From NCBI GenBank assembly GCA_963695655.1, contig CAVOHG010000008.1, forward strand, positions 909,380 through 973,379: a stretch of 64,000 nt of DNA, read 5' to 3'. The notes beneath the pieces were generated by a model that worked only from the letters and a program-made list of their open reading frames with translations, searched no databases and had not been told where the DNA came from. Both the position numbers and the translations under genes were made by a program. The stretch comes from an uncultured Acidobacteriota bacterium. GTDB lineage: Bacteria; Acidobacteriota; Vicinamibacteria; Vicinamibacterales; 2-12-FULL-66-21. Shown piece after piece: positions 38,246-64,000 of the stretch. Each line of letters opens with the position of its first letter. The stretch's first letter is position 1.

Positions 38246-38262
38246 CAGGTCTCCACGAAGCT

Positions 38263-38339
38263 AACAGCTGTCAGCTATCAGTACAGTTCCAAGACTAACC
38301 TGAGCTGATAGCTGAATGCTGATAGCTGATAGCCGAGAG
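38263..38339. repeat. heptanucleotide repeat element, CAGCTRT family, inverted arms
   Basis: acagctgt cagctat cagtaca ... then the inverted gagctga tagctga atgctga tagctga tagccga. Confidence 0.8.
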
Positions 38340-40565: not shown

Positions 40566-40641
40566 GCCCGCGGATTGTAAGCGAAAAAGAAAACGGCCGC
40601 GCGGGGTACCGCACGGCCGTCGTCGCATTCAGTTTGGGGTC

Positions 40642-40708
40642 GCTTCCGCCTCAAACCTCTGTAGCTTCCGCCTCAAACCTGTGTAGCTTCCGCCTTCAGG
40701 CGGAAGCC

Positions 40709-40721
<13 letters not shown>
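40642..40721. repeat. 22-nt tandem repeat (x2), then a third unit split by palindromic hairpin copy 4 (40687-40706)
   Basis: gcttccgcctcaaacctctgta / gcttccgcctcaaacctgtgta / gcttccgcc-ttcaggcggaag-cctcaaacctgtgta. The stop codon of the radical SAM gene lies inside the third unit. Confidence 0.85.
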
Positions 40722-42820
<2,099 letters not shown>

Positions 42821-43007
42821 ATGCCTCCGCAACACTCTTCTCGACGACGTGCGCGGGTGCCCGTGCGGCCCGCACACCAATCCAGCAAAAGAATATCGGG
42901 GGCCCCGTTCTCCCGTGCGCAAATTCAGCCAAATGGGCGATTTGTGGGGTGAACGGGCGGTATGCGGCGCGGGCGGGCGCAATCCGGAGCGGCAAGGCGA
43001 TCGAAAA

Positions 43008-44755: not shown

Positions 44756-45493
44756 ATGCTTCCCTCGACACTCTGCGCACCGATATTGGAGAATGCACGA
44801 ATGAGCAGTGAAACTGAGGCCGAGTGGCCACGCCTCCTGCGCCACGCGGCTCACGAGCTGCGCACGCCGCTTGGGGTCGGCCTCGGATACCTCGGGTTCA
44901 TCCTTTCCAGTTCGGACGGGCCGCTGACCGCACGGCAACGACAATTCGTTTCCGAATCGCAGAAAGCGCTCGGACGGCTCAAAGCCATTACTGATGAGAT
45001 GAGCGAATTGGCCAGGCTCGAGGCCGGCGAAGTGAAGATGCGGTCGGAGAAAATCGACATGGATCGCCTGCTGCTCGAAGCCGTGGCTGCGTTGCCCCCG
45101 CTCGAGGATCGGACTGTGGCGATTGATGTCACGACGAGCGGCGACCGCGACGGCGTCCACGGCGATTTCGTCCGGCTCCGGACTGCCTGCACGTGGATTC
45201 TGTACGGCCTGCGCCGCGAGCTGGTGACGAGCAGCACGCTCTATGTGAACGAAAGTCGACGCCTCTACAAGGGACGGTCCGCATCATGGATCACCATCGG
45301 CGACAGCGACCAGGTCGAGCGGCTCGCCGCCGCAGCTCCGGAGACGCTCGCCGCGTTCGATGAATGGCGCGGAGGATGCGGACTCAATCTGGCGATTGCC
45401 CGCCGCATCCTCGAAGCACACGGTGGTGCAGTGTGGTCACCGGCCGAAGGCGTCAGGGCAGGCGCGGCGGTTGTCCTTCCGCACCATCACTGA
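44756..45493 (+). CDS. soluble histidine-kinase-like protein (HisKA plus degenerate HATPase), no sensor or TM domain
   Basis: H-box [17 protein letters not shown]2-like [20 protein letters not shown]-box and G1-box are not recognisable. The start could be the internal MSSETEA at 44801. Confidence 0.6.
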
Positions 45494-45928: not shown

Positions 45929-45944
45929 TGGCACCCCACTTGCC
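45929..45944 (+). promoter_or_regulatory. sigma-54 (-24/-12) promoter for beta-helix paralog P1
   Basis: TGGCACcccacTTGCc, a perfect TGGCAC-N5-TTGC, 120 nt upstream of the ATG at 46064 in a 570-bp lower-GC intergenic region. Confidence 0.75.
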
Positions 45945-46063
45945 CAATCCGGGGCGCCGGCTGGGATGGAACTCTCGACAAGCGCCGGCTTTCTTAAACC
46001 ACCAACTGAATCATCGCGTCGCGGGTAAGAGACCCCGCTCGGCGCGAACCAAGGGAGTCTCCG

Positions 46064-48199
46064 ATGCCGGCAGCCGTGTGTCTTCGCACCGCCGCAGTCG
46101 CGGTACCGAATCCTGGTTTCAGCACCATCTTCCGCATCGGACTTGTCACCCTCCTCACGTTTGCCGCCGTCGTCACGATCTCTCCGACATCCGCTCACGC
46201 CGCCGACGTGGTTCTCGATGCCGCGTCGGGCACGCGGGCGGGCGCCTTCGTCGTCGTCAACGACAGCGCCGCAGCTGGCGGCACCGCGGCCGCGCTGCCG
46301 AACAAGGCACGGGCGAAGGTCGTCACGGCGGTGGCGGCACCTGCTGACTACCTCGAGCTGACGTTCACGGCGGATGCGAATACGCCCTATCACCTGTGGG
46401 TTCGCATGCGCGCCGAAACCAACTCGTACGCGAACGACTCCTTCCACGTCCAGTTCACCAACGTCGTCACCGGGGCCATCGGGACCACCTCGTCACAGGT
46501 GGTCAACCTCGAGGACGCCAGCAAACTGGGCGTGACCGGGTACGGGTGGCAGGACAACGGCTACGGCGCCGGCGTACTCGGCCCTGACATCGTGTTCTCA
46601 CGCGCCGGCACGCAGCGGCTGCGCATTCAGAACCGCGAAGATGGATTCGTCATCGATCAGATCGTGCTTTCGTCGGCTACCTACCTGCGCAAATCGCCGG
46701 GCCTGCTGAAGAACGATCAGACGTGGGTGCAGGACTCGCTGCAGCGGTCGCCGATCATCCAGGTACCAGCCGGGGCCGATCTGCAGGCCGCGCTGAACGG
46801 CGCCCGATCGGGCGACACGCTCGTGCTCGAGTCCGGCGCGCGCTACGTCGCGAATATCGACCTGCCGCCGAATGACGGCCCCGAGTACATCACCATCACT
46901 TCGGACGCCAACGTACCGCCCCCGGGAACGCGTGTGTCGCCGAACCTGCTCGGGCAGCTCGCCACCATCCAGTCGCCGGACGGCTGGCCGGCCGTCGTGG
47001 CGCGAACGGGCGCCAACTACTACAAGTTCGTTGGCGTCGTGTTTCGCGGCGTCGAAGGCGTTGCCAGCGGACTCGACACGACGAGGGACATCGTCAGCGT
47101 CGGCGACGGGACGGAGACGGACTCTGCGCTGCTGCCGTCGCATTTCGTCTTCGATCGTGTTCTCATCCGGGGGGATGCGATTTACGGCGCCAAGCGCGGC
47201 ATCCTCGGCAACGGCCACGACATCACGCTCATGTACAGCGACGTACGGACCATCTTCCGAAATGGCCAGGATACGAGCGGGTTCGGCTGCTACAACTGCG
47301 GCAAGACCTACCGCATCAACCACAACTGGATCGAGGCCGGAACCGAGGTCATCCTGTTTGGCGGCGCCGCATCGCCGGCGCACACGGTGGCTGAGGACAT
47401 CATCATCGAGGACAACGTCCTGACCCGTCCGCTCGCGTGGAAGGCGCTCGCCGGGCCAACCTACAACGTGAAGAACATCCTCGAGCTGAAGGAAGGCATC
47501 GGCGTGACGGTTCGGCGGAACTACCTGGAATACAACTGGCCGCCCTCGCAGCCGGGTTATGCGGTGCTGATCACGGCGAAGGATTCGAAAAAAATCGACC
47601 GCGTCCTCTTCGAAGACAATGTCGTCAAGAGCACGGCCGGGGCGATGAACATGCTCGGCTGGGACTACGCGACGAAGCTGCTTGCACCGACGTCGAACGT
47701 GACCGTCCGGAACAACCTCTTCGTGGTCTCGAAAAAGGACTACGGCGGGACCGGCTACTTTCTGCTGATTGGGTCAGCGCCGCGGAATATCCTCTTCGAC
47801 CACAACACCATCATTCACGACGGGACGACACTGGTGAACGCTTACACCGGCACCTACATCGGAGGGGACGGAAAGACGCATACCGATGGCACGATCGACG
47901 GCTTCGTCTGGACGAACAACCTGTCGCTCAATGGCCAGTACGGGTTCAACAGCTACGGGAGCATGAACGGCGCCGGCCTGCTGGCTGCGTTCCCCGGCAT
48001 CGTGATGCATGACAACGTCCTGGCGGGTTATACCGGCAAGTCGTACCCGGCGAACAACGATTACCCGAGCGCTGCCACGTTCATGTCGTACTTCGCGGAC
48101 TTCGCCGGTGCGGACTACCGCGTCCTGGCTACCGCGCCGCTAGGATCGGACGGCAAGAGGGTGGGCGCGGACGTCTCCCGTCTGCCGTCGAGGAAATAG
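46064..48199 (+). CDS. secreted right-handed beta-helix protein, paralog P1 (N-terminal lectin/CBM-like domain plus beta-helix)
   Basis: Signal peptide ...TISPTSAHA. CBM-like domain about 46205-46708 (YHLWVRMRAETNSYANDSFHVQF...GYGWQDNGYG...RIQNREDGFVIDQIVLSS). Beta-helix with motifs shared with P2-P4 (GADLQAALNGARSGDTLVLESG; AKRGI; WIEAGTEVILFGG; YFLLIGSAPRNILFDHNTI). Confidence 0.75.
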   Translation: MPAAVCLRTAAVAVPNPGFSTIFRIGLVTLLTFAAVVTISPTSAHAADVVLDAASGTRAGAFVVVNDSAAAGGTAAALPNKARAKVVTAVAAPADYLELTFTADANTPYHLWVRMRAETNSYANDSFHVQFTNVVTGAIGTTSSQVVNLEDASKLGVTGYGWQDNGYGAGVLGPDIVFSRAGTQRLRIQNREDGFVIDQIVLSSATYLRKSPGLLKNDQTWVQDSLQRSPIIQVPAGADLQAALNGARSGDTLVLESGARYVANIDLPPNDGPEYITITSDANVPPPGTRVSPNLLGQLATIQSPDGWPAVVARTGANYYKFVGVVFRGVEGVASGLDTTRDIVSVGDGTETDSALLPSHFVFDRVLIRGDAIYGAKRGILGNGHDITLMYSDVRTIFRNGQDTSGFGCYNCGKTYRINHNWIEAGTEVILFGGAASPAHTVAEDIIIEDNVLTRPLAWKALAGPTYNVKNILELKEGIGVTVRRNYLEYNWPPSQPGYAVLITAKDSKKIDRVLFEDNVVKSTAGAMNMLGWDYATKLLAPTSNVTVRNNLFVVSKKDYGGTGYFLLIGSAPRNILFDHNTIIHDGTTLVNAYTGTYIGGDGKTHTDGTIDGFVWTNNLSLNGQYGFNSYGSMNGAGLLAAFPGIVMHDNVLAGYTGKSYPANNDYPSAATFMSYFADFAGADYRVLATAPLGSDGKRVGADVSRLPSRK

Positions 48200-48232
48200 G
48201 GACGTGTCGCGGCTCGAGGAGGGTCGATGGCT

Positions 48233-49276
48233 TCAGGCTGCAACCTCTCCCTTCAGAACCGACGAGTGGAGAAACTGGTGCCATCGGCGGCGGACAAACC
48301 CGCGATAGGCTGGCCGCAGGCTTCCGACATCGCGCTCCGCCAGCTGCGCAATATGGCAGACGGCGTGCTGAAGCAGCATCAGCGCGAAGAGCGGATCAGC
48401 GGCGGAACCTGCCGGATCGAAACTGCGGAGCAGCGCCTGCTGCACGTCGGCCACATGGTCCGGCATCAGTCGCCGCCACGAGAGCCGGTCGAAGTGGAAA
48501 AAGAGGTGAGAGACATCGTGGTGGCGGGCTCCGGACTTGGCCATTGCGAAGTCCAGGATCGTCACGCGGCCGTCGGTGCCCACGATGATGTTGGTCGGGG
48601 TGAGGTCGGCGTGGATCGCGACGAGTGGTGGCGCCGGGAGACTCACACGCGCGGCGAGCTGGTCGAAGACCCGCAGGGCGAGGGCACGATCGCCCGCCGT
48701 CAGCATGCTGTCCGCAAGCTTCACGAGTCGAATGTCCAGGTACTCCCGGCGTTCGTCGAGGGAGAGGTTCCCCTGCACCGCAGTGACCTCCTGATACGTG
48801 CGCACCCATGCGCCGACGCGCTCTGCGGCGGAGACGGCGGCTGCGCGCGGACCCGCCCCCCAGAGGGACTGGCGCAGAACCTGATCAAGGGTGCGCCCCT
48901 GTACCTGTTCGGTGACGATCGTCAGGTGCTCGGGAAGAAGCGCCAGTGGTCGGAGCGCGTTCAATCCGGGCTTGCCGGTGAACGCCTCGTGCAGCTTTCG
49001 GGTTGCTCGATATTCGCGCTCGACGAACCGCCGGAGTTGCGCCAGCTCCTCCGGACCGGACCGACGCGGCTTGAACGTCTTGATAAAGGCGTACGTGTCG
49101 GCGCCCAGCGCCCTCACCCGCACCCGCAGCAGCGCCGAAAACGGCCGCTCGTGCCGCTCGAGCGCGTGGATCGTCGCGCCCCCATCGCCGAAATACTCCT
49201 CCGCGCCTGCCGCAAGCGCGGCCAGCACAGGTTCGAAGCCGGCGACCGCCCCTGTACGGGCCCTCTTGGCGATCAT
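48233..49276 (-). CDS. aminoglycoside phosphotransferase / choline-kinase-like (APH fold) kinase
   Basis: VAIHADLTPTNIIVGTDGRVTILDFAMA: Brenner/catalytic-loop and DFxxx motifs of the APH/ePK-like fold. Confidence 0.75.
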   Translation of the reverse strand: MIAKRARTGAVAGFEPVLAALAAGAEEYFGDGGATIHALERHERPFSALLRVRVRALGADTYAFIKTFKPRRSGPEELAQLRRFVEREYRATRKLHEAFTGKPGLNALRPLALLPEHLTIVTEQVQGRTLDQVLRQSLWGAGPRAAAVSAAERVGAWVRTYQEVTAVQGNLSLDERREYLDIRLVKLADSMLTAGDRALALRVFDQLAARVSLPAPPLVAIHADLTPTNIIVGTDGRVTILDFAMAKSGARHHDVSHLFFHFDRLSWRRLMPDHVADVQQALLRSFDPAGSAADPLFALMLLQHAVCHIAQLAERDVGSLRPAYRGFVRRRWHQFLHSSVLKGEVAA

Positions 49277-49288
49277 GGGCAGACTGCG

Positions 49289-50497
49289 TCAATACGCGTG
49301 GTGAAGCTGGTCAAAGGAAGACGCGGCGTCAGCTGCGGACGCGGAACCGCGCATGCCCGCGGTGTCGGGCTTGCGGCCCACCAGAAGCGGCCGGGCAAAT
49401 CCCGGAAACGCGTGAACTTCTACGTCGGAGTAACCATTGTCGATCATCAGCTGACGCAACTGGGTTGTCTGCGCCGGCAGATTGAATATGGCGTCGTTGG
49501 CCTGCAACACAAGCGACGCACCCATGCCGGCGGCCTTCGCGATGATTCGCGCCATGTCCTCTTGCGGCAGGTAGTACAGCGAACAGAATGCGGTCACGAC
49601 GTCAAACCTGCCGAGGTCGGCCGTCAGGAAGATGCGCATATCCCCGGTCAGTACCTCGATCCGGTAGTTGCGCATGTCGCGCCAGGCGAGGATTTTCGCG
49701 TTGGTGCGCGCGAAGTCGGCGATCGCGGGCGTGAATTCCACGGCGACAACCTCCGCGGCTCCGGCGCGAAGCATCGCGAGCGGCATGGACCCGTTGTTCG
49801 AACCGAGATCGAGCACGCGCCGCCCTTTAATCAGCGGTCCGACGATGCGGCCGTTGAAGAAATCCCAACGACCGGTTCCGCTGTCGGTTGAGGCGAACTG
49901 ACCGATAGCAAGCCCGCCGCCGAAATCGATCGGCGCGTAATCGCGATAGCCTTGCGGGACATTCGCCTTGAGCGATCGCAGCTCAGACCGTGCGTCCGAT
50001 TCAGTGAGCAGAGTGGCGCCGTACCGCGCGTTGTAGGCCCGGCGGTCCGCATCGCGTTCGGCGAAGAAGTACGATCCGCGGTGTTTATGAAAACGGGCGC
50101 CCGACAGATCGCCGAAACGCGCACGTCCGTCCGGGCCGGTGGCAAAACGATGTCCGCCTCGCACTCCGGTGATCCCGGCGCCATGCGCACGGTCCATCAG
50201 AGTGGCGACATCTGCGGGAGACGCGGAACCTGGCGAAGGCGGGGCCTGCGCGTCAGCGAGGAGGTCCGCATGACGAAGCTGCTCGACGGACGCCGGTGGC
50301 GCAGTCACCCGTCCGGCAGCTTCGAATATGCGCCGGGCTGCCGCGGGAGCCGATGGTCCCCAACCGAAACGATACAGCGCCCGGGGGATGGCGAAGCCCG
50401 TCAGCAGATATCGGAAATACCCCACCCCACGGCGTCGTCCGACCGTCACCACCCCGCGCGCATCCGCCAACAAGCCCATCTGCACCTCACCCTTCAC
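49289..50497 (-). CDS. class I SAM-dependent methyltransferase with about 200-aa unassigned N-terminal region
   Basis: RRVLDLGSNNGSMPLAMLRAGAAEVVAVE (motif I) ... FDVVTAFCSLYYLP. Confidence 0.75.
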   Translation of the reverse strand: MKGEVQMGLLADARGVVTVGRRRGVGYFRYLLTGFAIPRALYRFGWGPSAPAAARRIFEAAGRVTAPPASVEQLRHADLLADAQAPPSPGSASPADVATLMDRAHGAGITGVRGGHRFATGPDGRARFGDLSGARFHKHRGSYFFAERDADRRAYNARYGATLLTESDARSELRSLKANVPQGYRDYAPIDFGGGLAIGQFASTDSGTGRWDFFNGRIVGPLIKGRRVLDLGSNNGSMPLAMLRAGAAEVVAVEFTPAIADFARTNAKILAWRDMRNYRIEVLTGDMRIFLTADLGRFDVVTAFCSLYYLPQEDMARIIAKAAGMGASLVLQANDAIFNLPAQTTQLRQLMIDNGYSDVEVHAFPGFARPLLVGRKPDTAGMRGSASAADAASSFDQLHHAY

Positions 50498-50550
50498 GGA
50501 TTGAGGTGCAAGCGGCGCGCCAGAAGCTCAGGCGGGAGACACGGCGGCGG

Positions 50551-52464: not shown

Positions 52465-52593
52465 GGGACCACCACCAAGTCACACATCCGCCGCAGCGCG
52501 GCGGCCGTCCTTCTGGACATCCACATGCACTTCCCCCGGGGTCCGTGTTGGTTGAAAACCGCAACCGCAAGACGGCAGCGGCAACCGTCGAGG

Positions 52594-52609
52594 CGCAAGG
52601 CCGATGCCT
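52594..52609 (-). promoter_or_regulatory. candidate sigma-54 promoter for P2-methyltransferase-kinase operon
   Basis: Minus strand reads aGGCATcggccTTGCg (GG-N10-GC spacing correct), about 130 nt upstream of the start at 52464. An AT-rich tract with a small hairpin (gcaaaaa ggaa tttttgc) lies just upstream. Confidence 0.6.
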
Positions 52610-52858
52610 TGGCGGGGCGAGAAGCAAAAAGGAATTTTTGCTGGTCTTTTTGCGCGTTTAGCCGGTGTGTGGCGTAGGAAAAGGCGGGATGTTATTACAG
52701 ATTTGTCGAGGGGTTCACTGAACTGCCCTCGCGACGTGCGCTGGAATCAACGAACCGGCGGGGCCCTGTGGAGGACCCGCGAGCCAAAAGGGCTCGCCGG
52801 TCGGAATGGTCTGTTCGACTCGGCGATCGGTGGCGCGGAGTTCGGGACGTGTCTCTGA

Positions 52859-54439: not shown

Positions 54440-54456
54440 TTATTGCTCACTTCGGG

Positions 54457-57429: not shown

Positions 57430-57470
57430 CGTACTCCTGAAGAAGAGTCTGAACTTGAGACAGCGCTTGG

Positions 57471-57486
57471 TGCATCGGATGTGCCT
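57471..57486 (-). promoter_or_regulatory. candidate sigma-54 promoter for P4-P3 operon
   Basis: Minus strand reads aGGCACatccgaTGCA (GGCAC-N6-TGCA, GG-N10-GC spacing correct), about 45 nt upstream of the ATG at 57429. Confidence 0.6.
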
Positions 57487-57634
57487 GCCGTCGTAAAAGC
57501 ATTACTTACAATGCTTTACTGAAGTCGCGCTGATCTGGCTCGAGGGCTGCGTCCGGTAACGCAACTGAGCCTTATGTAGTACTTACCTCGCCGGGAGAAA
57601 AAGGCAGGACCGCGACGATATACCGATGCGCGAA

Positions 57635-57865
57635 TTAAGCGGCGCGCCGCACAGCCGCCGCGAGACCGATCAGCGCGGTGCCTACGAGCACCATCGCGGC
57701 CTCGTCACGCATTCCGGTGGCAGGAATCCCTACGCGCTGGACGGCTACCGGTGCCGCCGCATTCTCGCGCGGCTCAGCAGCCGCCCCGCGGCCGGCGGCC
57801 GCGACCGAAACGACCGCTGCCGCGGCCAGCACTGCAAACAAGACAACCACGAACTGCCTACGCAT
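57635..57865 (-). CDS. small secreted protein with C-terminal sorting-signal-like tail
   Basis: 76 aa from an internal ATG: MRRQFVVVLFAVLAAAAVVSVAAAG (signal peptide), a short Ala/Pro-rich core, then GIPATG-MRDEAAMVLVGTALIGLAAAV-RRAA. Confidence 0.45.
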   Translation of the reverse strand: MRRQFVVVLFAVLAAAAVVSVAAAGRGAAAEPRENAAAPVAVQRVGIPATGMRDEAAMVLVGTALIGLAAAVRRAA

Positions 57866-57976
57866 GACCCTGTGACCTCTGTCGTTCTCTGAATCGGCCG
57901 CCGGATATTTCCGCGACGCGCGGTGAGGCGACCTCATCGGTAATGCATGCGCTCACGCATCACCAACGTTCGACGC

Positions 57977-57992
57977 TACAAGCGACGTGCCA
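57977..57992 (-). promoter_or_regulatory. weak sigma-54-like site upstream of the small gene
   Basis: Minus strand reads TGGCACgtcgcTTGTa: perfect -24 element, but -12 is TTGT instead of TTGC. About 110 nt upstream of 57865. Confidence 0.3.
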
Positions 57993-58205
57993 GTCACAAC
58001 ACGAACATTAAGGCGCTATCGTGAATCTTGCGCTCCGCGGGCAGTGAGGACGTGGAATACTTTTTCCCAAGTTCGCCCAATCAGAGGATTCCAGGCTGTT
58101 GAGGTACGCTTTTTGAATACAAGTCGTATCCGAGTTGAGACTGTGTTACCTGAACTACCCATCGGCTGGGTCGTACACCCACCATATTTCCCTGCAGGGA
58201 GTTAG

Positions 58206-59720
58206 ATGAAGAACCCCTACGTCGCCATTGTGGACGACGACTCGTCGTTTGCGAACTACTTGCGGACGTTCCTTTCGCTGCGTGGTTACGAAGCTCGGTG
58301 CTACACGCGCGGCGACGAACTGCTCGCATCGATGAAGCAGACCGAGGCGCCAGACGTGATCCTGCTCGACGTCATGATGCCCGGTCTCGACGGCCTCGCT
58401 ACGCTGCGGGCTCTCAAAGCCTCCCGCCCCGAGGCGCAGGTCATCATGCTCTCGGGCCGGAACCAGGCCTCGACGATCGTGGAAGCGGTCCGCCTCGGAG
58501 CGGCTGACTACGTCGTCAAGCCGGACGATCCTGAAGGTCTCGGCGAGATTGCGCTCGACGTGGCGATCAAGAATGCGATCGAGAAGAACCGCCTCGTGAC
58601 CGAGCTCCTCGACCTCCGGCAGCAGCTGAGCGACGACGAGGATCGCGCGGTCTGGGGTAACTCCGAGAAGATGCGGGGGATCGCCACGGTGATCGAGCAG
58701 GTCGCGGATAGCGACGTCACCGTCCTCATCCGTGGAGAGAGCGGCGTGGGCAAGGAGCTGGTGTCGCGCGCCATTCACCAGCGGTCGACGCGACGCAACC
58801 GCCCGTTCGTCAAGGTCAACTGCGCCGCGCTTCCGGCCGAGCTGCTCGAAAGCGAGCTCTTCGGCCACGAACGGGGAGCGTTCACCGGCGCCGCCACGAC
58901 CCGAATCGGAAAGTTCGAACAGGCCGACACCGGCACGCTGATGCTCGACGAAATCGGCGAGATGAAGCCGGCGCTGCAAGCCAAGCTGCTCCACGTTCTG
59001 CAGGACGCCGAGTTCACCAAGCTTGGCAGCAACAAGCGGATCCAGGTCGACGTCCGCATCGTCGCCGCCACCAACCGTGACCTCGAGAAGATGATGCTGA
59101 GCGGCGATTTCCGGGAGGATCTCTATTACCGGCTCAAGGTCATCGAGCTGACCGTTCCGTCGCTGCGCGAGCGCCCTGACGAGGTCCCGACGCTCACCGA
59201 TTTTTTTGTCGCCCGATACTCACGCAAATACAACCGCCCGCTGCGGCCGATCTCGGATGAGCTTCGGCAGCTCTTTCTCCAGTACGACTGGCCGGGGAAC
59301 ATCCGCGAGCTCGAGAACATGATCAAGCGCGTCGTAATCCTCCAGGACGAGCATCTGGTCGTTCACGAGATCCAGCGGAACCTTCAGCGCCACGCGGCCA
59401 TGCAGGTCGCGGCAGTCGCACCCGTGACGATGGCGGCGGCCGTCGGCATCCCGGTCGCGGCAGGCGTTGGTGCGATGCCAGGCTCTTTCGGTCCGCCTGA
59501 GCTCGACACGGAATCGACCGACGAGCCGGAGTCGATTGAAGAAGGGAATGGATCGCTCGCTTCAGTCGCGAAGGCCGCATCGATGAAGGCTGAGCGCGCG
59601 GCGATCGAACAGACGCTCGGGCAAGTGCACTGGAACCGACGCAAGGCGGCTCAGATTCTGGGTGTGAGCTACAAGACGCTGCTCAATAAAATCAAGGAGT
59701 GTGGCATCAGCCGCGCCTGA
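58206..59720 (+). CDS. sigma-54-dependent response regulator (REC-AAA+-Fis HTH), NtrC/PrsR-like
   Basis: REC with DVILLDVMMPGLDG. AAA+ GESGVGKE. GAFTGA loop (ERGAFTGA). HTH NRRKAAQILGVSYKTLLNKIKECGI. An unusual ~70-aa Ala/Val/Pro-rich linker precedes the HTH. Confidence 0.93.
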   Translation: MKNPYVAIVDDDSSFANYLRTFLSLRGYEARCYTRGDELLASMKQTEAPDVILLDVMMPGLDGLATLRALKASRPEAQVIMLSGRNQASTIVEAVRLGAADYVVKPDDPEGLGEIALDVAIKNAIEKNRLVTELLDLRQQLSDDEDRAVWGNSEKMRGIATVIEQVADSDVTVLIRGESGVGKELVSRAIHQRSTRRNRPFVKVNCAALPAELLESELFGHERGAFTGAATTRIGKFEQADTGTLMLDEIGEMKPALQAKLLHVLQDAEFTKLGSNKRIQVDVRIVAATNRDLEKMMLSGDFREDLYYRLKVIELTVPSLRERPDEVPTLTDFFVARYSRKYNRPLRPISDELRQLFLQYDWPGNIRELENMIKRVVILQDEHLVVHEIQRNLQRHAAMQVAAVAPVTMAAAVGIPVAAGVGAMPGSFGPPELDTESTDEPESIEEGNGSLASVAKAASMKAERAAIEQTLGQVHWNRRKAAQILGVSYKTLLNKIKECGISRA

Positions 59721-59733
59721 GCCGTATCGCGAA

Positions 59734-59763
59734 GAGGGAATGATCGTTCGCGATCATTCCCTC
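59734..59763 (+). terminator. hairpin terminator between the two bEBP genes
   Basis: Perfect 13-bp stem gagggaatgatcg / cgatcattccctc closed by a TTCG loop, followed by a moderately T-rich tract (ctgttcttcc). Confidence 0.6.
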
Positions 59764-59894
59764 CTGTTCTTCCCTCTCGTCTACCTACAGTAAGCACCCA
59801 GCTTCCACATTCACTCCCGCTCACCTCCCCGACCACGTCAGTTAGCAGTCGCAACGCCGAGCGTTTTCCATACAACGCGAAACATTTTCTCTCG

Positions 59895-59910
59895 TGGCAC
59901 CCACCTTGCT
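59895..59910 (+). promoter_or_regulatory. sigma-54 (-24/-12) promoter for the second bEBP / EPS export operon
   Basis: TGGCACccaccTTGCt, a perfect TGGCAC-N5-TTGC, 60 nt upstream of the ATG at 59970. Confidence 0.8.
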
Positions 59911-59969
59911 GAACGACGAGCTGTGTACTTTCCCACGTCGACGCGTCGATTCTCCTGGAGCGGCATCCG

Positions 59970-61094
59970 ATGAACGATCGCGACAAGGCCGGCCGCGGCG
60001 AACCTGACGTGCCGGAGGGCGGCGAGCGCCGCCACGGCCGTCCCACGCGTGTCATCGGCGAGCTCCTGGGCACGAGCGACAAGATGCGGGAGGTGCGCGA
60101 TCTCATCGATCGCGTCGCTGACACCGACGTCACCGTGCTGGTGCGTGGCGAGAGCGGCACCGGTAAGGAGCTCGTTGCGCGCGCCATCCACGCCAGCTCG
60201 CCGAGGAAGAACCGCACGTTCGTGAAGGTGAATTGCGCGGCGTTGCCGTCCGAACTCCTCGAATCCGAGCTCTTCGGTTTCGAGCGTGGCGCATTCACCG
60301 GCGCGATTCAGCAGAAACCGGGAAAGTTCGAATTCGCGCACGAAGGGACGATGTTTCTCGACGAGATCAGCGAGATGCATCCGCCGCTTCAATCCAAGCT
60401 GCTGCAGGTGCTTCAGGACGGCGAGTTCGCGCGACTTGGCGGCCGCGAAGATGTCCACGTCGATGTTCGCATCGTCGCCGCCACCAACCGCGATCTCGAG
60501 GTCGCGGTCGCTGACGGCCACTTTCGCGAGGACCTGTTCTTCCGGTTGAACGTGGTCTGCATCACGCTGCCGCCGCTGCGTCAGCGGCGCGACGAGATCC
60601 CCGTGCTGACCGAACGCTTCCTGCGCCAGTACGCGGAGCACTACAACAAGCCCCCGATCACGCTGGCCGCCGAGACGATGCGGCTGTTCGGGGTCTACGA
60701 CTGGCCCGGCAACGTGCGGGAGCTCGAGAACCTGCTGAAGCGGGCGGTCGTTCTTGGTTCCGACGAATCGATCCGTCGTGAGCTTGCGGAAAACATCGCC
60801 GGACGGACGCCCGTGCCGGGAACGATCCCGGCGCTGCAGTCGCGAGCAGAGGTGGACGTCGCGGTCGCGCCGGCGGTGATCGCCGGGGCCGAGGGAGTGG
60901 CGCTGCCTCCCGCGCTCTCGGGGTCGCTCAAGGACATCGCGCGCCATGCCGCGCGCGAAGCCGAGCGCGAACTGATCTATCGCACGCTGCAGCAGACGCG
61001 CTGGAACCGCCGGGAAGCAGCGGAAATCCTGGGCGTCAGCTACAAGGCGCTGCTCTACAAAATCAAGGAAGCGGAGCTCGACAAGGCATCGTGA
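59970..61094 (+). CDS. sigma-54-dependent transcriptional activator lacking a receiver or sensory domain (AAA+-Fis HTH only)
   Basis: Only about 35 aa precede the AAA+ core (GESGTGKE, ERGAFTGA). HTH NRREAAEILGVSYKALLYKIKEAEL. Confidence 0.9.
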   Translation: MNDRDKAGRGEPDVPEGGERRHGRPTRVIGELLGTSDKMREVRDLIDRVADTDVTVLVRGESGTGKELVARAIHASSPRKNRTFVKVNCAALPSELLESELFGFERGAFTGAIQQKPGKFEFAHEGTMFLDEISEMHPPLQSKLLQVLQDGEFARLGGREDVHVDVRIVAATNRDLEVAVADGHFREDLFFRLNVVCITLPPLRQRRDEIPVLTERFLRQYAEHYNKPPITLAAETMRLFGVYDWPGNVRELENLLKRAVVLGSDESIRRELAENIAGRTPVPGTIPALQSRAEVDVAVAPAVIAGAEGVALPPALSGSLKDIARHAAREAERELIYRTLQQTRWNRREAAEILGVSYKALLYKIKEAELDKAS

Positions 61095-61570
61095 CTGCTG
61101 ACTCCTTCCTTGACGAGGATTTCCGGGTGCTGACCTCAGAAGCGTTCGACTTCGTGCTGAACAACGAGCTGAAGCGGGCGGTCAGGTCACAGAACTTCCT
61201 GACGCTCGTGCATGTCGAACCAACCGTGCGCGGCGCGCAGAACGGCGGCCACGGCGACCGCGACAAGGCCGTCCGCGAGATTGCCCGACTGATCAGCCGC
61301 GAAGTCCGCGAAACCGATCTCCTGGCGCACACCGCGAACGGCCGGCTGTCGATCGTGCTGCTCGACGCCGACATGCCGAACTCGATGGGGGTCATCGAAC
61401 GCCTGATGTCCCGTCTCGACCACTACGAATTCACGCAGCCGCTCGCCATCGAGGTTGCAGCCGCCTGTTGCCCCACGCACGGCGCCGACGTGGATTCGCT
61501 CCGTCGCGCCGCCGAAGCGCGGCCAGTTCACCCCCGCCGCGACACCCGCGGCAACGCTTCGAACGCCTAA
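61091..61570 (+). CDS. degenerate GGDEF-like domain protein (no GGDEF motif)
   Basis: GTG start overlaps the bEBP stop (GTGA). FDFVLNNELKRAVRSQNFLTLVHVE ... RETDLLAHTANGRLSIVLLDAD follows the GGDEF fold pattern, with ANGRL in place of GGDEF/GGEEF. Confidence 0.5.
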   Translation: MTADSFLDEDFRVLTSEAFDFVLNNELKRAVRSQNFLTLVHVEPTVRGAQNGGHGDRDKAVREIARLISREVRETDLLAHTANGRLSIVLLDADMPNSMGVIERLMSRLDHYEFTQPLAIEVAAACCPTHGADVDSLRRAAEARPVHPRRDTRGNASNA

Positions 61571-61584
61571 CCGAAGGTGAGTGT

Positions 61585-62307
61585 ATGAGGATCACAACCA
61601 CTGCCCCGTTCTCTATCGCGATTCTGCTGAGCATGGCGACCATGGCCGGTGCACAGACGAGCGCGGGGGCCGCGTCTTCGTCCTCGCGACCGGCGCAGCC
61701 GCCGGCCGACACCGCGGCCCCGGTGATGCCGGCCACGCCGGCGACGAACACGCCATCCGCGCCGACGACCGCGCCATCGTTGCCGCCGGCAAAGCCGGAC
61801 AACACCGCGTCAGCGAATACGTCACCCGACTACCGCCTCGTCCCCGGGGACAAGCTTCGCATCGAGGTCTACCGCGATGCGCAGCTGTCGCAGTCGCTCC
61901 AGATCCGGCCGGACGGAAAGATCACGATGCCGCTCATCGGCGACGTGTCCGCCGAGGGCCGGACCGCCACCGAACTGCGCGATTCGCTCGTGACCTCGCT
62001 CAAGGAATACAACACCAACCCGGTTGTGACCGTGATCGTGGTCGAGACCGTTCCGCCGGTGTTCTATGTGATGGGCGAGGTGAATTCGCCCGGGACCTTC
62101 CCGATCAAGGGGCAGGTGTCGGCGGTTCAGGCGCTGGCCATGGCCGGCGGCTTCAAGGACTTCGCAAAGACGAAGGACATCAGCGTGCTGCGTAAACGGG
62201 CCGGTGGTGGTATGCACGAAACCCTGAAGTTCAACTACAAGGACGCGCTCAGAGGTAAGGGAGAGCCGATCTATCTCCAGCCCGGCGACACGATCATTGT
62301 CCCGTAG
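61585..62307 (+). CDS. polysaccharide export protein (Wza/EpsE-like: Poly_export plus SLBB)
   Basis: Signal peptide. YRLVPGDKLRIEVY...IRPDGKITMPLIGDVSAEGRTATEL...VMGEVNSPGTFP...VQALAMAGG...LQPGDTIIVP. Confidence 0.9.
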   Translation: MRITTTAPFSIAILLSMATMAGAQTSAGAASSSSRPAQPPADTAAPVMPATPATNTPSAPTTAPSLPPAKPDNTASANTSPDYRLVPGDKLRIEVYRDAQLSQSLQIRPDGKITMPLIGDVSAEGRTATELRDSLVTSLKEYNTNPVVTVIVVETVPPVFYVMGEVNSPGTFPIKGQVSAVQALAMAGGFKDFAKTKDISVLRKRAGGGMHETLKFNYKDALRGKGEPIYLQPGDTIIVP

Positions 62308-62332
62308 GACCGGAGAGACACCGAGGCAACTC

Positions 62333-63524
62333 ATGCGAACGAACCTCGTCGTCCGAGCTGTTGGAATCGTGATTCTCCTCGCGCCTTGGCCGATTGCCGC
62401 GCAGGAGGTGGAGACCCTGTCCGGGAGCCTGCCGGGCTGGAGCGTCACGCCCGGCATCAGCGTTGGCGCGGGGTATGACTCGAACGTTGCATTGCAGAAT
62501 ACGCCTGCGGACACGGGACAGACGGTCTCCGACGAACTGATTCTCATACAACCCACGGCGCAGCTCGATTTCCTGTCGCCGCGGACCCAGTTCTCCAGCG
62601 GGTACCACGGAAACGTGCGGCGGTACTTCGAGCTGGATCAGCTGAACGGTTTCGACCAGCAGGGGTACGCATCGCTCCGACGGCTGGCATCCAAACGCGT
62701 GACTCTCGCGATGAGTGAGAACTACGCCCGGACTCCGACGACTGACGAACTCGAGCTCTATGGCGTGCCGTTCCTTCGGACGGGTGCGCGGCGTAATACG
62801 TTCGGCGGCGGTGTCGATACGCGACTGACGAAGTTCATGGACCTGTCTGTCGGTGTCGACCACACCTGGGTGGCGTTCGACCGCACGAGCAGCCTGCTGA
62901 CGGGCGGCTGGGTCGCGGGCGGGCGGGTCGCCCTGAGCCGCCGGATGCGCGAGCACCTCTCGGTCGGCGGCGAGTACCGGCTGCGCTTCGCGGAGATGAA
63001 CGAAGACACCCGCAACCTGACATTCCAGGACGCCGGCGCGACGGTTCGGATCGGGCTCGCCCAGCGGACGAGCGTCGGGGCCGCGGTCGGCCTCGCGTTT
63101 TTGAACGATCGGTCACTCGGGGAAAAGCGCCAGGGGCCATACGTACCGAGCCGACGTGACGCGGAACACGGAGCGCGTGACAATCGGCGCCGCATTCGAG
63201 CGGACATTTGTACCGTCGTTCGGCTTCGGGGGCTCGAGTCAGAGCGAAATGGTCCGCGGCTACGTCCGCATGCCGCTCGAACGGAACCGGATGTATGTGG
63301 AGGCAGCCCTGTCCTGGCGCCGCAGCGACCCATTCCTGAACGACGCGTTGGTTCTCCAGACGACCACGCTGCGCTCCGCCGTTGGATACTCGCTGGCGCG
63401 TCACCTGCGGCTCGAAGGCGTTTACGCGCTCAGCCGCCAGGACACGCCGGTCGCTGGCGGTGACGTCAACCGTTCGCGGATAGGTGTCCAGATCGTCGTC
63501 TCCCAACCCATGAGGATCCAGTGA
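62333..63524 (+). CDS. outer-membrane beta-barrel protein of EPS loci (PEP-CTERM-system-associated type), one frameshift near 63145
   Basis: Signal peptide MRTNLVVRAVGIVILLAPWPIAAQE. Alternating beta-strand pattern (GISVGAGYDSNV, TAQLDFLS, VGGEYRLRF). Continuation is in ORF 63156-63524 and ends with barrel-like strands. Length is 3n+1. Confidence 0.6.
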
Positions 63525-64000
63525 TGGAAGAACGTGCCTTTCACCCGCTCGACTACCTGACCGTCGTCAGCCGCCGCAAGTGGTGGCTGATCGTCCCGGT
63601 CGTGCTGGGCGTAATCGCCGGCATCACCCTCGCGCTGATGTGGCCCAAGGAGTACATCTCGGAGGCGAAAATCGGTATCGCCGCCCCGACACTTTCCCCC
63701 GAATTGCTGCGCGGCGTCAGTTCGCTCGACAAGGAGGAGCGGCAGCGCGCGATTTCGCAGCAGCTCCTCAGCCGGCAGGTCCTCGAGCGCGTGGCGCGCG
63801 AGGAGAAGCTCGACCCGAGCAAGCCGGTCGAGGACGTGGCGGGATGGCTGCGCAGCCGTGTGGTGGTGCAGGTCGACCAGCCGATCGGCCGCATGGAGAA
63901 CAAGAACGGTCTGGACAGCTTCGATCTTGGCTACGTCGACTCCGAGCCGAACCGCGCCCAGCGCATCACGAATCGCCTCGCGTATGTGTTCGTCGAGGAG
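63524..64000 (+). CDS. polysaccharide chain-length determinant (Wzz/EpsF-like), N-terminal part, continues beyond window
   Basis: ATG overlaps the preceding stop (TGATG). Open to the window end. Manual translation: MEERAFHPLDYLTVVSRRKWWLIVPVVLGVIAGITLALMWPKEYISEAKIGI...LLSRQVLERVAREEKL, a typical Wzz N-terminus. Confidence 0.8.
   Translation, partial: MEERAFHPLDYLTVVSRRKWWLIVPVVLGVIAGITLALMWPKEYISEAKIGIAAPTLSPELLRGVSSLDKEERQRAISQQLLSRQVLERVAREEKLDPSKPVEDVAGWLRSRVVVQVDQPIGRMENKNGLDSFDLGYVDSEPNRAQRITNRLAYVFVEE

Follow-up and report, generated by a model that had tools for sequence, protein, structure and literature searches.

A putative sigma-54-controlled island of secreted beta-helix proteins in the regulatory head of an acidobacterial EPS locus

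Introduction

Single-gene PEP-CTERM operons that lie beside EPS loci under RpoN/PrsR control have been described (PMC1569441, PMC9850573) and provide a precedent for the locus reported here. It has been proposed that loci of the PEP-CTERM type serve to decorate the EPS with proteins (PMC1569441). In other EPS systems, PslG, AlgL, AlgG and RbmB trim, modify or release the polymer, and the same role is proposed below for four beta-helix proteins, P1 to P4.

The locus lies in a 64-kb window (the whole stretch of DNA analysed) from a soil acidobacterium. All genes listed in a first-pass annotation of the sequence were present as described, at the coordinates given below. The locus is read, with about even confidence, as the regulatory head of an EPS locus of the Wzx/Wzy type, associated with XrtA/PEP-CTERM, in a Vicinamibacterales-type acidobacterium, into which an accessory island of putative glycan-cleaving or glycan-modifying beta-helix enzymes has been inserted. 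This is a testable lead, and no new kind of system is claimed.

The accessory island

P1 (46064 to 48199, forward strand; 711 aa) consists of a signal peptide, an N-terminal CBM-like beta-sandwich (approximately aa 60-220) and a beta-helix core. The other three genes are on the reverse strand. P2 (50551 to 52464; 637 aa) has a signal peptide and a core with an insertion of about 110 aa (approximately aa 260-370), for which a PDB sequence search returned no match. P3 (52859 to 54439; 526 aa) has a signal peptide and core only, and was chosen as the type member for modelling. P4 (54457 to 57429; 990 aa) carries a signal peptide, a core with an insertion, a poly-Pro linker and a PKD domain (Pfam PKD_4, E 7.9e-15) that is split by a P1-like CBM-like domain. 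P2, P4 and P1 are 49%, 40% and 34% identical to P3 respectively, and the four are true paralogs (34-49% identity), as was proposed from the first reading, with shared invariant residues. Signal peptides had also been assigned to all four, in agreement with the Sec-type N-termini ending in an AxA-like site that were seen by eye in each translation (4/4).

The N-terminal domain of P1 has a weak Pfam match to GH115_C and is 47% identical to aa 704-869 of P4. With the N-terminus of an EEP-domain protein in a related locus (L094) it shares 50% identity; that protein is secreted and is encoded at the distal end of an EPS cluster of the same type.

The AF2 model of P3 (pLDDT 90.7) is a right-handed beta-helix. 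Its top PDB and viral Foldseek matches are all carbohydrate-active beta-helices, among them GH136 LnbX, PL31, PL6, AlgE4, the HK620 and Det7 tailspikes and RbmB. Identity to these is only 9-15%, and P3 therefore falls in no characterised family. Pfam assigned nothing beyond the generic PF13229 to the cores (P2 scored 33.2 bits against Beta_helix, cut-off 25.9), and PDB sequence matches of the family to PL31 and PL6 were confined to the N- and C-terminal caps. The earlier impression that this family has no characterised member thus held. The family comprises 7,902 clusters at 50% identity, and P3 has more than 6,400 homologs, all of them unnamed; fusions to CBM6, CBM35, BACON and GH115_C-like domains occur among the relatives.

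Among 154 members, a set of mostly polar residues is conserved in at least 85-93%: R91, D161, R175, D200, Q202, N217, N218, E221, E225, N249, K265, N266, E269, K271, N281, E284, W287 and Q291. The whole set is intact in P1 to P4 except for Q202S and N217H, both in P1. The invariant Asp, Glu, Lys, Arg and Asn residues span about five consecutive coils and lie in the core, not in the accessory domains. P1 to P4 are most likely catalytically active, as hydrolases, beta-eliminating lyases or C5-epimerases.

Two further genes on the reverse strand complete the island. An APH-fold kinase (48233 to 49276; 347 aa, cytoplasmic; Pfam APH, E 4.6e-11) has as its best PDB match only corramycin phosphotransferase (E 0.0016). 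The kinase gene recurs in the close relative L001, in a second JGI contig and in L002 and L026; the beta-helix clusters of L003 and L004 lack it in the part that is visible. The class I SAM methyltransferase (49289 to 50497; Methyltransf_25, E 4.9e-10, also Methyltransf_11/12 in Pfam) has an N-terminal extension of about 200 aa and generic PDB matches. Translation probably begins at the ATG at 50479; the L001 ortholog is 395 aa long.

EPS export genes and the downstream cluster

Three export genes occupy the end of the window, all on the forward strand. The first encodes a short outer-membrane polysaccharide export protein (OPX; 61585 to 62307) with Poly_export and one SLBB domain (Pfam), which scores 123.9 bits against TIGR03027 (cut-off 180) and 114.6 bits against EpsY NF041843. 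The second encodes its partner outer-membrane beta-barrel (62297 to 63524; TIGR03016, a weak 19 bits). The barrel gene noted at first reading is present, but comparison with a close relative's intact gene shows that one inserted nucleotide near 63145 breaks its frame; in L001 and L007 the gene is intact and encodes 396-401 aa. The third (63524 to 64000), cut by the window end, encodes the N-terminal 159 aa of a Wzz-type chain-length determinant; the fragment scores 69.5 bits against TIGR03007, and a full-length relative scores 210 bits, below the cut-off of 278.85.

The best NCBIfam matches of all three are XrtA/PEP-CTERM-associated models (TIGR03027, TIGR03016, TIGR03007), each below cut-off. 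Syntenic relatives continue into a cluster of about 20 kb, with a priming transferase, tyrosine kinase, flippase and glycosyltransferases directly past the window end. There, the priming transferase and an ATPase pass the curated XrtA/PEP-CTERM cut-offs (TIGR03013, 498 against 393; TIGR03015, 345 against 324). These sequence matches support the PEP-CTERM/exosortase-type assignment first given to the export genes. Exosortase, priming transferase and tyrosine kinase genes had been named as genes to look for downstream; in relatives the latter two were found, but no exosortase within about 20 kb of the OPX gene. More than 20 contigs share the downstream cluster, which includes a nucleotide-sugar dehydrogenase (TIGR03026, 443 bits), which makes uronic acid in the polymer plausible.

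Regulators and putative sigma-54-type promoters

Both sigma-54 enhancer-binding proteins recognised at first reading have an AAA+ domain with GAFTGA. EBP1 (58206 to 59720, forward strand) is an NtrC-type response regulator with REC, Sigma54_activat and Fis-type HTH (HTH_8) domains in Pfam, the GAFTGA motif being read from the translation; it scores 372 bits against PrsR (TIGR02915), below the cut-off of 502.6. The gene is followed by a terminator-like hairpin with a 13-bp stem (59734 to 59763, forward). EBP2 (59970 to 61094, forward) is a sigma-54 activator without a receiver domain that retains the HTH. Its stop overlaps the start of a GGDEF-fold protein (61091 to 61570, forward; 159 aa), correctly called degenerate: it scores 31 bits against TIGR00254 (cut-off 37.4) and has ANGRL in place of GGDEF, with RETD (RxxD) 5 aa upstream. 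VR[ED]TD and xxGRL are conserved in this protein across 38 loci. Outside the range first annotated lies a soluble HisKA-type histidine kinase-like protein (44756 to 45493, forward; 245 aa, with NCBIfam histidine-kinase matches), the probable partner of EBP1; a homolog lies directly upstream of EBP1 in nine related loci.

The window was scanned for TGGCACN5TTGCW at no more than one mismatch and compared with 100 shuffles. Six sites were found, against 1.41 +/- 1.04 in the shuffles, and six was reached in 0/100. Five of the six are in this region of about 18 kb; all five are intergenic or at gene ends, and each precedes a gene in the same orientation. TGGCACCCCACTTGCC (45929 to 45944, forward) is 120 nt upstream of P1, and the P1 ortholog in L001 has the same -24/-12 site 111 nt upstream. 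TGGCGCGCCGCTTGCA (50507 to 50522, reverse), before the methyltransferase-kinase pair, is likewise conserved in L001. TGGCACAGCATTTGGA (54460 to 54475, reverse), upstream of P3 and within the last codons of P4, has a non-canonical -12 element and is conserved only in L001. TGGCACGTCGCTTGTA (57977 to 57992, reverse) lies 111 nt upstream of a 76-aa ORF and is divergent from EBP1; most related loci have TGGCAC-N5-TTG(T/A)A in this position, among them loci that lack beta-helix genes. The perfect site TGGCACCCACCTTGCT (59895 to 59910, forward; 0 mismatches) precedes EBP2 by 60 nt and probably serves as the promoter of an EBP2-GGDEF-OPX-barrel-Wzz operon; almost all related loci have TGGCAY-N5-TTGCT at the equivalent position.

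Weaker sites precede the remaining genes. AGGCATCGGCCTTGCG (52594 to 52609, reverse), about 130 nt upstream of P2, has three mismatches and keeps the GG and GC; YGGMAY-N5-CTTGCS occurs about 70 nt upstream of P2-type genes in seven related loci. AGGCACATCCGATGCA (57471 to 57486, reverse; two mismatches) is 42 nt upstream of P4, and a GG-N10-GC site is found 40-76 nt upstream of P4-type genes in six loci. An AGGTAC-N5-TTGAA block (58102 to 58117, forward), 89 nt upstream of EBP1, is conserved in an alignment of 22 EBP1 upstream regions; it is non-canonical, failing the GC rule for the -12 element, and could represent either a weak promoter of the -24/-12-like type or some other regulatory site. 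The first-pass annotation had placed a -24/-12 promoter before each transcription unit. The five sites at no more than one mismatch agree with this, but the claim is slightly overstated because the P2 and P4 sites are weak and EBP1 has the non-canonical block only. Among P-family genes of relatives, 11 of 51 have an upstream site at two mismatches or fewer, against 4% of control positions, and about half have none at three or fewer. No sigma-70-like promoter was found in 18.6 kb, where 2.7 were expected, and no rpoN was seen in the window.

Conservation of the neighbourhood

The gene neighbourhood is conserved. In 20 of 28 informative Vicinamibacterales-type loci, the 2.5 kb upstream of EBP1 contain a beta-helix family member, and P3-type genes are EBP1's most conserved neighbour; the other eight loci have no beta-helix genes within the 3-8 kb of upstream sequence covered. 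Family members retain the position directly beside EBP1 and the 76-aa gene in loci whose EBP1 identity spans 71-99%. The histidine kinase-EBP1 pair brackets the island, with beta-helix genes between the two in this locus, L020 and L030. In Terriglobales and Bryobacterales, homologs of the EBP-OPX block have no beta-helix genes within 10 kb.

Proposed function of the island and alternatives

P1 to P4 are best read as sigma-54-controlled secreted glycanases, lyases or epimerases that would act on the locus's own EPS; the first reading of them as EPS-modifying enzymes or matrix proteins was likewise tentative. The island would comprise four Sec-exported beta-helix paralogs with a cytoplasmic kinase and a methyltransferase, set into the EPS regulatory head. 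The soluble histidine kinase would phosphorylate EBP1, which together with the receiver-less EBP2 would open sigma-54 promoters before three gene sets: the gene for the tail-anchored 76-aa protein, those for the beta-helix proteins, and the EBP2-GGDEF-OPX-barrel-Wzz operon. The degenerate-GGDEF protein, which is co-translated with EBP2 and retains the RxxD site, may modulate EBP2. Since the beta-helix genes and the EPS operon would both have sigma-54 promoters, the enzymes are proposed to be made together with the polymer, which they would trim, modify or release in the periplasm or matrix. Counting against this reading are the weak or non-canonical sites of P2, P3 and P4, the variable order and copy number (1 to 4) of the beta-helix genes, and the restriction of the kinase and methyltransferase to few loci, the same methyltransferase being seen only in L001 and the second JGI contig. 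The identity of at most 15% to any characterised enzyme, the eight loci and the Terriglobales and Bryobacterales homologs without nearby beta-helix genes, the great size of the family and the failure to see rpoN in the window also weigh on that side.

Acidobacteria are known polysaccharide degraders, and CBM6 and CBM35 are typical of plant-polysaccharide degraders. P1 to P4 could be secreted foraging enzymes that depolymerise polysaccharides from outside the cell (of plants or fungi, or the EPS of other bacteria) and leave its own polymer alone, placed beside EPS regulators only through island insertion or shared sigma-54 nutrient-type control. The very large, diversified family with its CBM6, CBM35 or BACON members, and the GH2, GH39, aldose epimerase and TonB-type receptor genes upstream in the window, keep this in play, as do the differences in paralog number and order and the eight loci without beta-helix genes. 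It is nevertheless rather unlikely: the position beside EBP1 and the 76-aa gene is conserved, the genes separate a histidine kinase from its response regulator, their promoter-like sites match the EPS operon's in type, and the CBM-like domain recurs in a protein encoded at the opposite end of the EPS cluster; no transporter, SusC/D-like or sugar-catabolic gene is found inside the island. Less probable still is a purely regulatory association, in which the conserved sigma-54 regulon comprises the EPS operon and the 76-aa protein, expression of the island is independent, and the sites before P1-P4 and the methyltransferase are chance or decayed matches. Conservation in nearly all loci is indeed confined to the EBP2 and 76-aa ORF sites, those of P3 and P4 are non-canonical or mismatched, and roughly half of the relatives' P-family genes lack a site at three mismatches or fewer; the clustering in 18 kb of five of the window's six sites at no more than one mismatch, all five correctly oriented, the fixed distances at which P2-type and P4-type sites recur in several loci, and the lack of sigma-70-like alternatives in 18.6 kb argue otherwise.

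Of the alternatives, the one given least weight, and improbable, is that P1 to P4 have no catalytic activity and are matrix or surface proteins, that they bind EPS and organise it as adhesins or lectin-like scaffolds of beta-helix fold, and that they are similar in function to matrix proteins such as RbmC/Bap1. Secretion, the multi-domain build with PKD and CBM-like modules, and the proposed protein decoration of EPS by PEP-CTERM-type loci would fit such a role, which the first-pass annotation had raised. However, the dense invariant polar set over about five coils is typical of active-site grooves rather than scaffolds, P3's nearest structural neighbours are all enzymes, and no repeat expansion, sorting tail, autotransporter or TPS signature was found in P1 to P4 (translations, Pfam).

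The 76-aa protein

The 76-aa ORF (57635 to 57865, reverse strand) encodes an N-terminal signal or transmembrane segment, a short linker and a conserved C-terminal tail, [R/P][D/E]EAAMVLVG[T/S]ALIGLAAAVRRAA. It is conserved in 21 loci, with a codon-position variability of 10/3/23; of the codon differences, 1365 are synonymous and 209 non-synonymous, and the protein represents a conserved, selected small-protein family. The tail, first noted as sorting-signal-like, is collinear with PEP-CTERM and lacks the PEP motif. The protein looks like the locus's PEP-CTERM-like element, although it fails the PEP-CTERM model. There are 979 homologs, with lengths of 62-108 aa among the 120 matches listed. The tail of this family has been mislabelled as LPXTG.

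Gene content of the locus

The gene map was drawn from an ORF listing, a GC3 filter and family scans (Pfam, NCBIfam), and all genes listed in the first-pass annotation were recovered in the window, the G+C content of which is 61–68%. A histidine kinase-like gene (44756–45493, +) is followed by the first of four paralogous secreted beta-helix proteins, P1 (46064–48199, +). The APH-fold kinase (48233–49276, −), the SAM methyltransferase (49289–50497, −), P2 (50551–52464, −), P3 (52859–54439, −) and P4 (54457–57429, −) are encoded on the opposite strand, as is a 76-aa ORF (57635–57865, −). Two sigma-54 enhancer-binding proteins, EBP1 with a receiver domain (58206–59720, +) and EBP2 without one (59970–61094, +), are followed by a degenerate GGDEF protein of 159 aa (61091–61570, +), a short outer-membrane polysaccharide export protein (OPX; 61585–62307, +) and an outer-membrane barrel (62297–63524, +). 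The first 159 residues of a Wzz-like protein extend up to the window end.

The EpsY/EpsX type of Myxococcus is a composite OPX/beta-barrel outer-membrane translocon. The arrangement here is similar, in that the short OPX has one SLBB domain and no C-terminal helix and is followed by the gene for a beta-barrel of about 400 aa. Among the matches of the OPX, the EpsY model NF041843 ranks second, but its score of 114.6 is far under the equivalog cut-off of 320. Unlike in EpsY/EpsX, the barrel gene is frameshifted: compared with L001, a 91%-identical relative in which the gene is intact (396 aa), a 1-nt insertion near 63145 (GTACC versus GT-CC) splits the frame into 62297 to about 63145 and about 63145 to 63524. 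This reflects either an assembly error or a pseudogene. EBP1 matches were likewise fragmented in several long-read MAG loci (L007, L013, L027 and L037).

The beta-helix protein family

P3 is 49% identical to P2, 40% to P4 and 34% to P1, and the proposed paralogy of the four proteins therefore holds. Pfam returned only the generic Beta_helix model (above threshold in P2, below it in P4), besides PKD in P4 and a weak GH115_C-like match in P1, and the NCBIfam scan of P1–P4 gave no match. PDB searches with sequences and profiles gave matches to PL31 and PL6 alginate lyases only at the N-terminal cap and, weakly, at the C-terminal one. The N-terminal GGDLQAAL..A.PGD and the C-terminal DYRL...DLGA blocks aligned with PL31 6kfn and PL6 7dmk; the catalytic coils of these lyases had no sequence match to P1–P4 in the same searches.

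An AlphaFold model of P3, a member of the core-only type, built from 52 sequences (pLDDT 90.7, pTM 0.89) is an all-beta helix, and the predicted fold class, a right-handed parallel beta-helix, is clear. Foldseek matched the model exclusively to carbohydrate-active beta-helices, many with probability 1.0, including GH136 lacto-N-biosidase, PL31, many PL6 enzymes, the AlgE4 and AlgE6 epimerases, phage tailspikes, GH87, GH91 and RbmB; in the viral library, tailspike or depolymerase-like proteins ranked first. Identities were 9–15% and query-normalised TM-scores at most 0.55; the best CAZy structural matches (PL6, PL31, GH136) gave 0.36–0.55 with E values of 1e-7 to 1e-5. Since only a generic Pfam model matches, P1–P4 are not placed in PL6, PL31 or GH136 on present evidence, and membership in a characterised CAZy beta-helix family (PL6, PL31, PL9, GH28, GH136 and others) is not supported by the Pfam, NCBIfam and PDB searches. 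With PDB matches confined to the caps and no Foldseek identity above 15%, the earlier view of an uncharacterised family stands. A literature search returned no description of the family or of the locus in Acidobacteria.

The family has many members. Among at most 8,000 candidates, more than 6,400 proteins matched at E<=1e-5, every named one being 'hypothetical', and one named P3 homolog originates from a Vicinamibacterales MAG. Clustering at 50% identity gave 7,902 clusters (E<=1e-3), 3,246 of them at E<=1e-30. Longer members bear CBM6, CBM35, BACON, PKD, He_PIG, FG-GAP and GH115_C-like modules. Across 154 members, the polar residues R91, D161, R175, D200, Q202, N217, N218, E221, E225, N249, K265, N266, E269, K271, N281, E284, W287 and Q291, together with an Asn ladder, are kept in at least 85–93%, and P1–P4 retain this set except for two substitutions in P1. 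The conserved acidic, basic and Asn residues fall on successive coils at a spacing of about one coil, which fits a substrate groove and argues that P1–P4 would all be active enzymes.

The CBM-like domain at the N-terminus of P1 shares 47% identity with a domain that interrupts the PKD region of P4. It shares 50% with the N-terminal part of a secreted protein with an EEP domain, encoded at the distal end of the EPS cluster in a related locus (L094). An AF2 model of this domain from a two-sequence alignment was of low confidence (pLDDT 47.7). The insertion domain of P2 had no match in a PDB sequence search.

Conservation of the neighbourhood

A JGI contig with a 91%-identical P3 keeps the entire 18-kb arrangement. 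A locus with a 58%-identical P3 has the same regulators and export genes, with the four beta-helix genes reordered; it also has an APH kinase, and its methyltransferase is a different one. The OPX protein, searched against GTDB genomes, yielded 80 loci. The block EBP1-EBP2-GGDEF-like-OPX-barrel-Wzz is kept in 39 loci labelled Acidobacteriota or Vicinamibacterales (37 from the OPX scan, plus L001 and L002). Twenty-eight loci include the N-terminus of EBP1 and 3 kb or more of sequence upstream of it; in 20 of these a family member is encoded no more than 2.5 kb from EBP1. A histidine kinase is encoded directly upstream of EBP1 in nine, and in four of the nine a beta-helix gene lies just beyond the kinase. 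Loci of Terriglobales and Bryobacterales keep the EBP-OPX pair, with no beta-helix gene within 10 kb. The expected conservation of the neighbourhood was thus borne out: the association of beta-helix genes with EBP1 is common and position-specific within the order, although not universal, and paralog content varies.

The EPS cluster beyond the window

The gene order past the window end was judged from three related loci (L004, L007 and L010) and more than 20 metagenome contigs. Wzz is followed by genes for a tyrosine autokinase, a priming transferase, a flippase, a nucleotidyltransferase, a YvcK-like protein and an XrtA-associated ATPase, and then a nucleotide-sugar dehydrogenase, a GT2 glycosyltransferase, an O-antigen-ligase/Wzy-like protein and two or three large genes. 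In the syntenic locus L007, the priming transferase scored 498.5 bits with TIGR03013 (cut-off 393.35) and the ATPase 345.3 bits with TIGR03015 (cut-off 324.5); the XrtA-associated markers that pass curated cut-offs are these genes beyond the window end. Scores were below cut-off for the tyrosine autokinase (TIGR03018, 173 bits, under 231), the O-antigen-ligase/Wzy-like protein (TIGR03097, 81 bits, under 188), the full-length Wzz relative (TIGR03007, 210 bits, under 279) and the markers in the window itself (TIGR03027, 123.9 versus 180; TIGR03016, 19 versus 91).

The two passing markers uphold the likening of the export genes to PEP-CTERM/exosortase-type EPS loci. Of the genes anticipated in the 20 kb downstream, the priming transferase and the tyrosine kinase were found in the syntenic relatives, but an exosortase was not: none was detected by Pfam among 30 window ORFs, and none was called within about 20 kb downstream of OPX in L007 and L094, the downstream gene order of which is common to more than 20 contigs.

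A uronate-containing polymer is plausible given the nucleotide-sugar dehydrogenase of the conserved cluster. Lyase or epimerase activity is thus reasonable to propose for P1–P4, and hydrolase activity equally so. The large distal genes have only marginal matches of the TarF type (teichoic-acid glycerol-phosphate transferase), and one is fused to a GT2 domain. Next to such genes, at the distal end of the cluster, two related loci (L094:18887–20296, −; L146:20149–20811, −) encode a secreted protein composed of the CBM-like domain of P1 and P4, a poly-Pro linker and an endonuclease/exonuclease/phosphatase domain. This neighbourhood hints that the polymer may contain phosphodiester links.

Sigma-54-type promoters and regulators

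The consensus TGGCACN5TTGCW with at most one mismatch occurs six times in the window against 1.41 expected, and no shuffle reached six. Five of the sites lie in the region, co-oriented with and upstream of P1, the methyltransferase, P3, the 76-aa ORF and EBP2. The sixth (33601–33616, −) falls within the coding sequence of a FUSC-family membrane protein, probably by chance. The claim that each transcription unit is preceded by a -24/-12-type promoter is borne out for those five, but P2 and P4 have weaker GG-N10-GC sites and EBP1 is preceded only by a conserved AGGTAC-N5-TTGAA block. Nearly all related loci have the EBP2 site (TGGCAY-N5-TTGCT), and most have the small-ORF site (TGGCAC-N5-TTG[T/A]A, with a non-canonical -12), including those without beta-helix genes. 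Of 51 P-family genes in relatives, 22% are preceded by a site with at most two mismatches, compared with 4% of random positions, and P2-type and P4-type genes there have sites at fixed distances. Both EBPs match Sigma54_activat (Pfam; E 3e-72 and 8.5e-71) and have GAFTGA in their translations. Co-oriented GG-N10-GC sites and EBPs with the AAA+ domain and GAFTGA, the features of a sigma-54-dependent unit, thus occur together, and use of the promoters is predicted.

No sigma-70-like promoter was found in the region, and inspection by eye revealed no activator site common to the seven promoter regions. A strong hairpin lies between EBP1 and the EBP2 promoter. In the region upstream of EBP1 (58044–58125 and aligned loci), two blocks are conserved, GTGGAAnAnTTTTGCTCAAGTT and CTGTTGAGGTACGnnTCTTGAATGCA; they may bind an activator or serve as promoter elements for the divergent small-ORF/EBP1 region. 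Between the 76-aa ORF and the P4 site, a perfect 8-bp inverted repeat (57496–57517; AAAGCATT-N6-AATGCTTT), AT-rich in a GC-rich genome, could be a terminator of the small gene or a protein-binding site. A third apparent conserved sigma-54 site in relatives, TGGCACGACCTCTGCT, about 7.5 kb downstream of OPX, lies inside the nucleotidyltransferase coding sequence; it is therefore attributed to coding conservation and was rejected as a promoter.

The regulators differ from the PrsK/PrsR/PrsT system. EBP1 scored 372.5 with the PrsR equivalog TIGR02915, under the cut-off of 502.6; the histidine kinase is small (245 aa) and soluble, with no PrsK match in NCBIfam; and PrsT is absent, no TPR protein being found in the region by translation and Pfam.

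The start of the GGDEF-like gene overlaps the stop codon of EBP2. An active diguanylate cyclase was rejected, as the motif is absent and TIGR00254 scored 31, under 37.4. ANGRL or a variant replaces GGDEF in 38 loci, and RETD (RxxD) is kept five residues upstream, with the register set by eye. This layout is that of c-di-GMP-binding I-sites, from which we infer that binding is possible, and the protein may provide a c-di-GMP input to EBP2. PelD is the type of a degenerate-GGDEF c-di-GMP receptor, and FleQ is a c-di-GMP-responsive EBP. As with these, a GGDEF fold that has lost the motif but keeps RxxD is encoded alongside EPS genes, and its translation is coupled to that of a sigma-54 activator. 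Unlike these, it is a stand-alone protein with putative c-di-GMP binding, and homology extends no further than the domain class.

The 76-aa protein

Orthologs of the 76-aa protein were found in 21 loci, with a nearly invariant tail, [R/P][D/E]EAAMVLVG[T/S]ALIGLAAAVRRAA. Variable columns are distributed 10/3/23 over the codon positions, the third being the most variable, and codon differences comprise 1365 synonymous and 209 non-synonymous changes; the ORF is therefore a real, constrained gene. The LPXTG anchor model TIGR01167 scored 17.2, over the 15.9 cut-off by 1.3 bits, and JGI names some members 'LPXTG-motif cell wall-anchored protein'. Despite this pass, a sortase substrate was rejected, as the pentapeptide IPATG is replaced by LTPMI, LPWPG, GQASG or MPDSG in orthologs, while constraint sits on RDEAAM, the transmembrane segment and RR. 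The label appears to be a mis-annotation from a marginal match to a transmembrane-plus-RR tail.

The PEP-CTERM model TIGR02595 did not match the window protein at E<=10 or four orthologs at E<=1. Aligned by eye, the tail runs collinear at every residue with canonical PEPSSILLIGTGLLGVFGYGRRR tails encoded beside the homologous EBP-OPX block in Terriglobales, and some orthologs read PEEA. The protein has 979 homologs, and the 120 listed are all of 62–108 aa, which suggests a dedicated family of small proteins and not a tail common to many cargo proteins.

In seven Terriglobales loci (L040, L041, L046, L048, L049, L064 and L073), canonical PEP-CTERM proteins are encoded near the homologous EBP-OPX pair (about 4.0–4.9 kb). 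Their tails read ...PEPSS[IL]LLIGTGLLGV.GYGRRRLG; six are of about 240–300 aa, and that of L048 is a 72-codon ORF. These genes had no upstream -24/-12 site with two or fewer mismatches.

Comparison with known systems and interpretation

PEP-CTERM genes beside EPS loci have been described as single genes with a long upstream region, a -24/-12 site and an NtrC-type EBP (Haft et al., 2006; PMC1569441), and pepA of Aquincola is a PEP-CTERM case under sigma-54 control (PMC9850573). The setting of the 76-aa gene matches both: it forms an operon by itself, has a long upstream region and a -24/-12 site, and lies next to an NtrC-type EBP in an EPS locus; its product is small with a motif-transmembrane-Arg tail. 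The short OPX, the Wzz-like protein, the tyrosine kinase and the passing TIGR03013 and TIGR03015 matches in relatives add to the likeness to XrtA/PEP-CTERM loci. The locus differs from these in that no exosortase was seen in the stretches scanned, in that the tail lacks the PEP motif and fails TIGR02595, and in that beta-helix proteins are no described component of such loci.

For the latter, a precedent is provided by the AlgG/AlgE C5-epimerases, AlgL, PslG and the RbmB lyase of the Vibrio cholerae VPS locus, which are secreted or periplasmic, encoded with biosynthesis and export genes, and trim, modify or release the polymer of the cell itself. Right-handed beta-helices among them are AlgG, AlgE and RbmB, and Foldseek matched P3 to AlgE4 and RbmB, with only the fold in common (11–14% identity). 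In contrast to these single enzymes, there are four paralogs here with variable accessory domains, each apparently with its own sigma-54-type promoter. By analogy, the locus would operate in the manner of XrtA/PEP-CTERM-type EPS loci that are subject to PrsR-like control, aided by accessory enzymes like AlgG, RbmB and PslG.

P1–P4 are read here as sigma-54-co-regulated secreted enzymes that process the EPS of their own locus, a reading given even chances. They might instead be foraging depolymerases placed beside the EPS genes by island insertion. Set against the recurrent position next to EBP1, insertion of a foraging island is unlikely, though it is the foremost competitor. It is more doubtful again that the island is expressed independently and that its promoter-like matches are due to chance. 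Non-catalytic matrix proteins are the least probable, the conserved polar residues arguing for activity.

In a bolder reading, P1–P4 would be a new CAZy-level family of lyases, hydrolases or epimerases specific for an XrtA-type EPS that possibly contains uronate and phosphodiester groups. The PEP-less, PEP-CTERM-collinear tail would be a new processing signal of exosortase or other type, and the 76-aa protein a dedicated protein primer or anchor of the polymer, while a degenerate-GGDEF c-di-GMP receptor would control a receiver-less sigma-54 activator in trans. That all of this forms one matrix-remodelling module of dominant soil Acidobacteriota, combining a new enzyme family, a new processing signal and a trans-controlled receiver-less EBP, is improbable as a whole. 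Sigma-54 control of PEP-CTERM-type loci is already established, as is the presence of enzyme genes in EPS loci, and no current view is overturned.

Vicinamibacterales-type Acidobacteriota are abundant in soils, nearly all relatives found are from soil metagenomes, and the matrix polymers of these bacteria are relevant to carbon retention and to the aggregation of soil. With its roughly 7,900 clusters (50% identity), the unnamed beta-helix family is an expressible candidate for a new glycan-active enzyme family. The compact, putative sigma-54 regulon with position-conserved sites could be used to predict genes co-regulated with EPS in uncultured lineages, and the 76-aa protein is a small, strongly selected, tail-anchored protein mislabelled as LPXTG by current pipelines.

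Other genes of the window

The APH-fold kinase and the methyltransferase were considered as a WbdD-like chain terminator, a reading that found no support: the PDB matches were generic, with no WbdD, and the pair occurs in only a few related loci. The methyltransferase has an unassigned N-terminal extension of about 200 aa (49900–50497, −), in which the segment HGAGITGVRGGHRFATGPDGRARFGDLSGARF is loosely reminiscent of the catalytic loop and DFG region of a degenerate kinase, a motif-level impression. Upstream genes unrelated to the finding (35380–43030 and 20614–24840) encode a GH39 protein, an aldose 1-epimerase, a GH2-like protein, a large radical-SAM protein with an HMPTM-type zinc ribbon and a 1,409-aa outer-membrane barrel of the CarboxypepD_reg/TonB type. 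The upstream part of the window also has ABC-2 transporter genes and MsrPQ-like genes.
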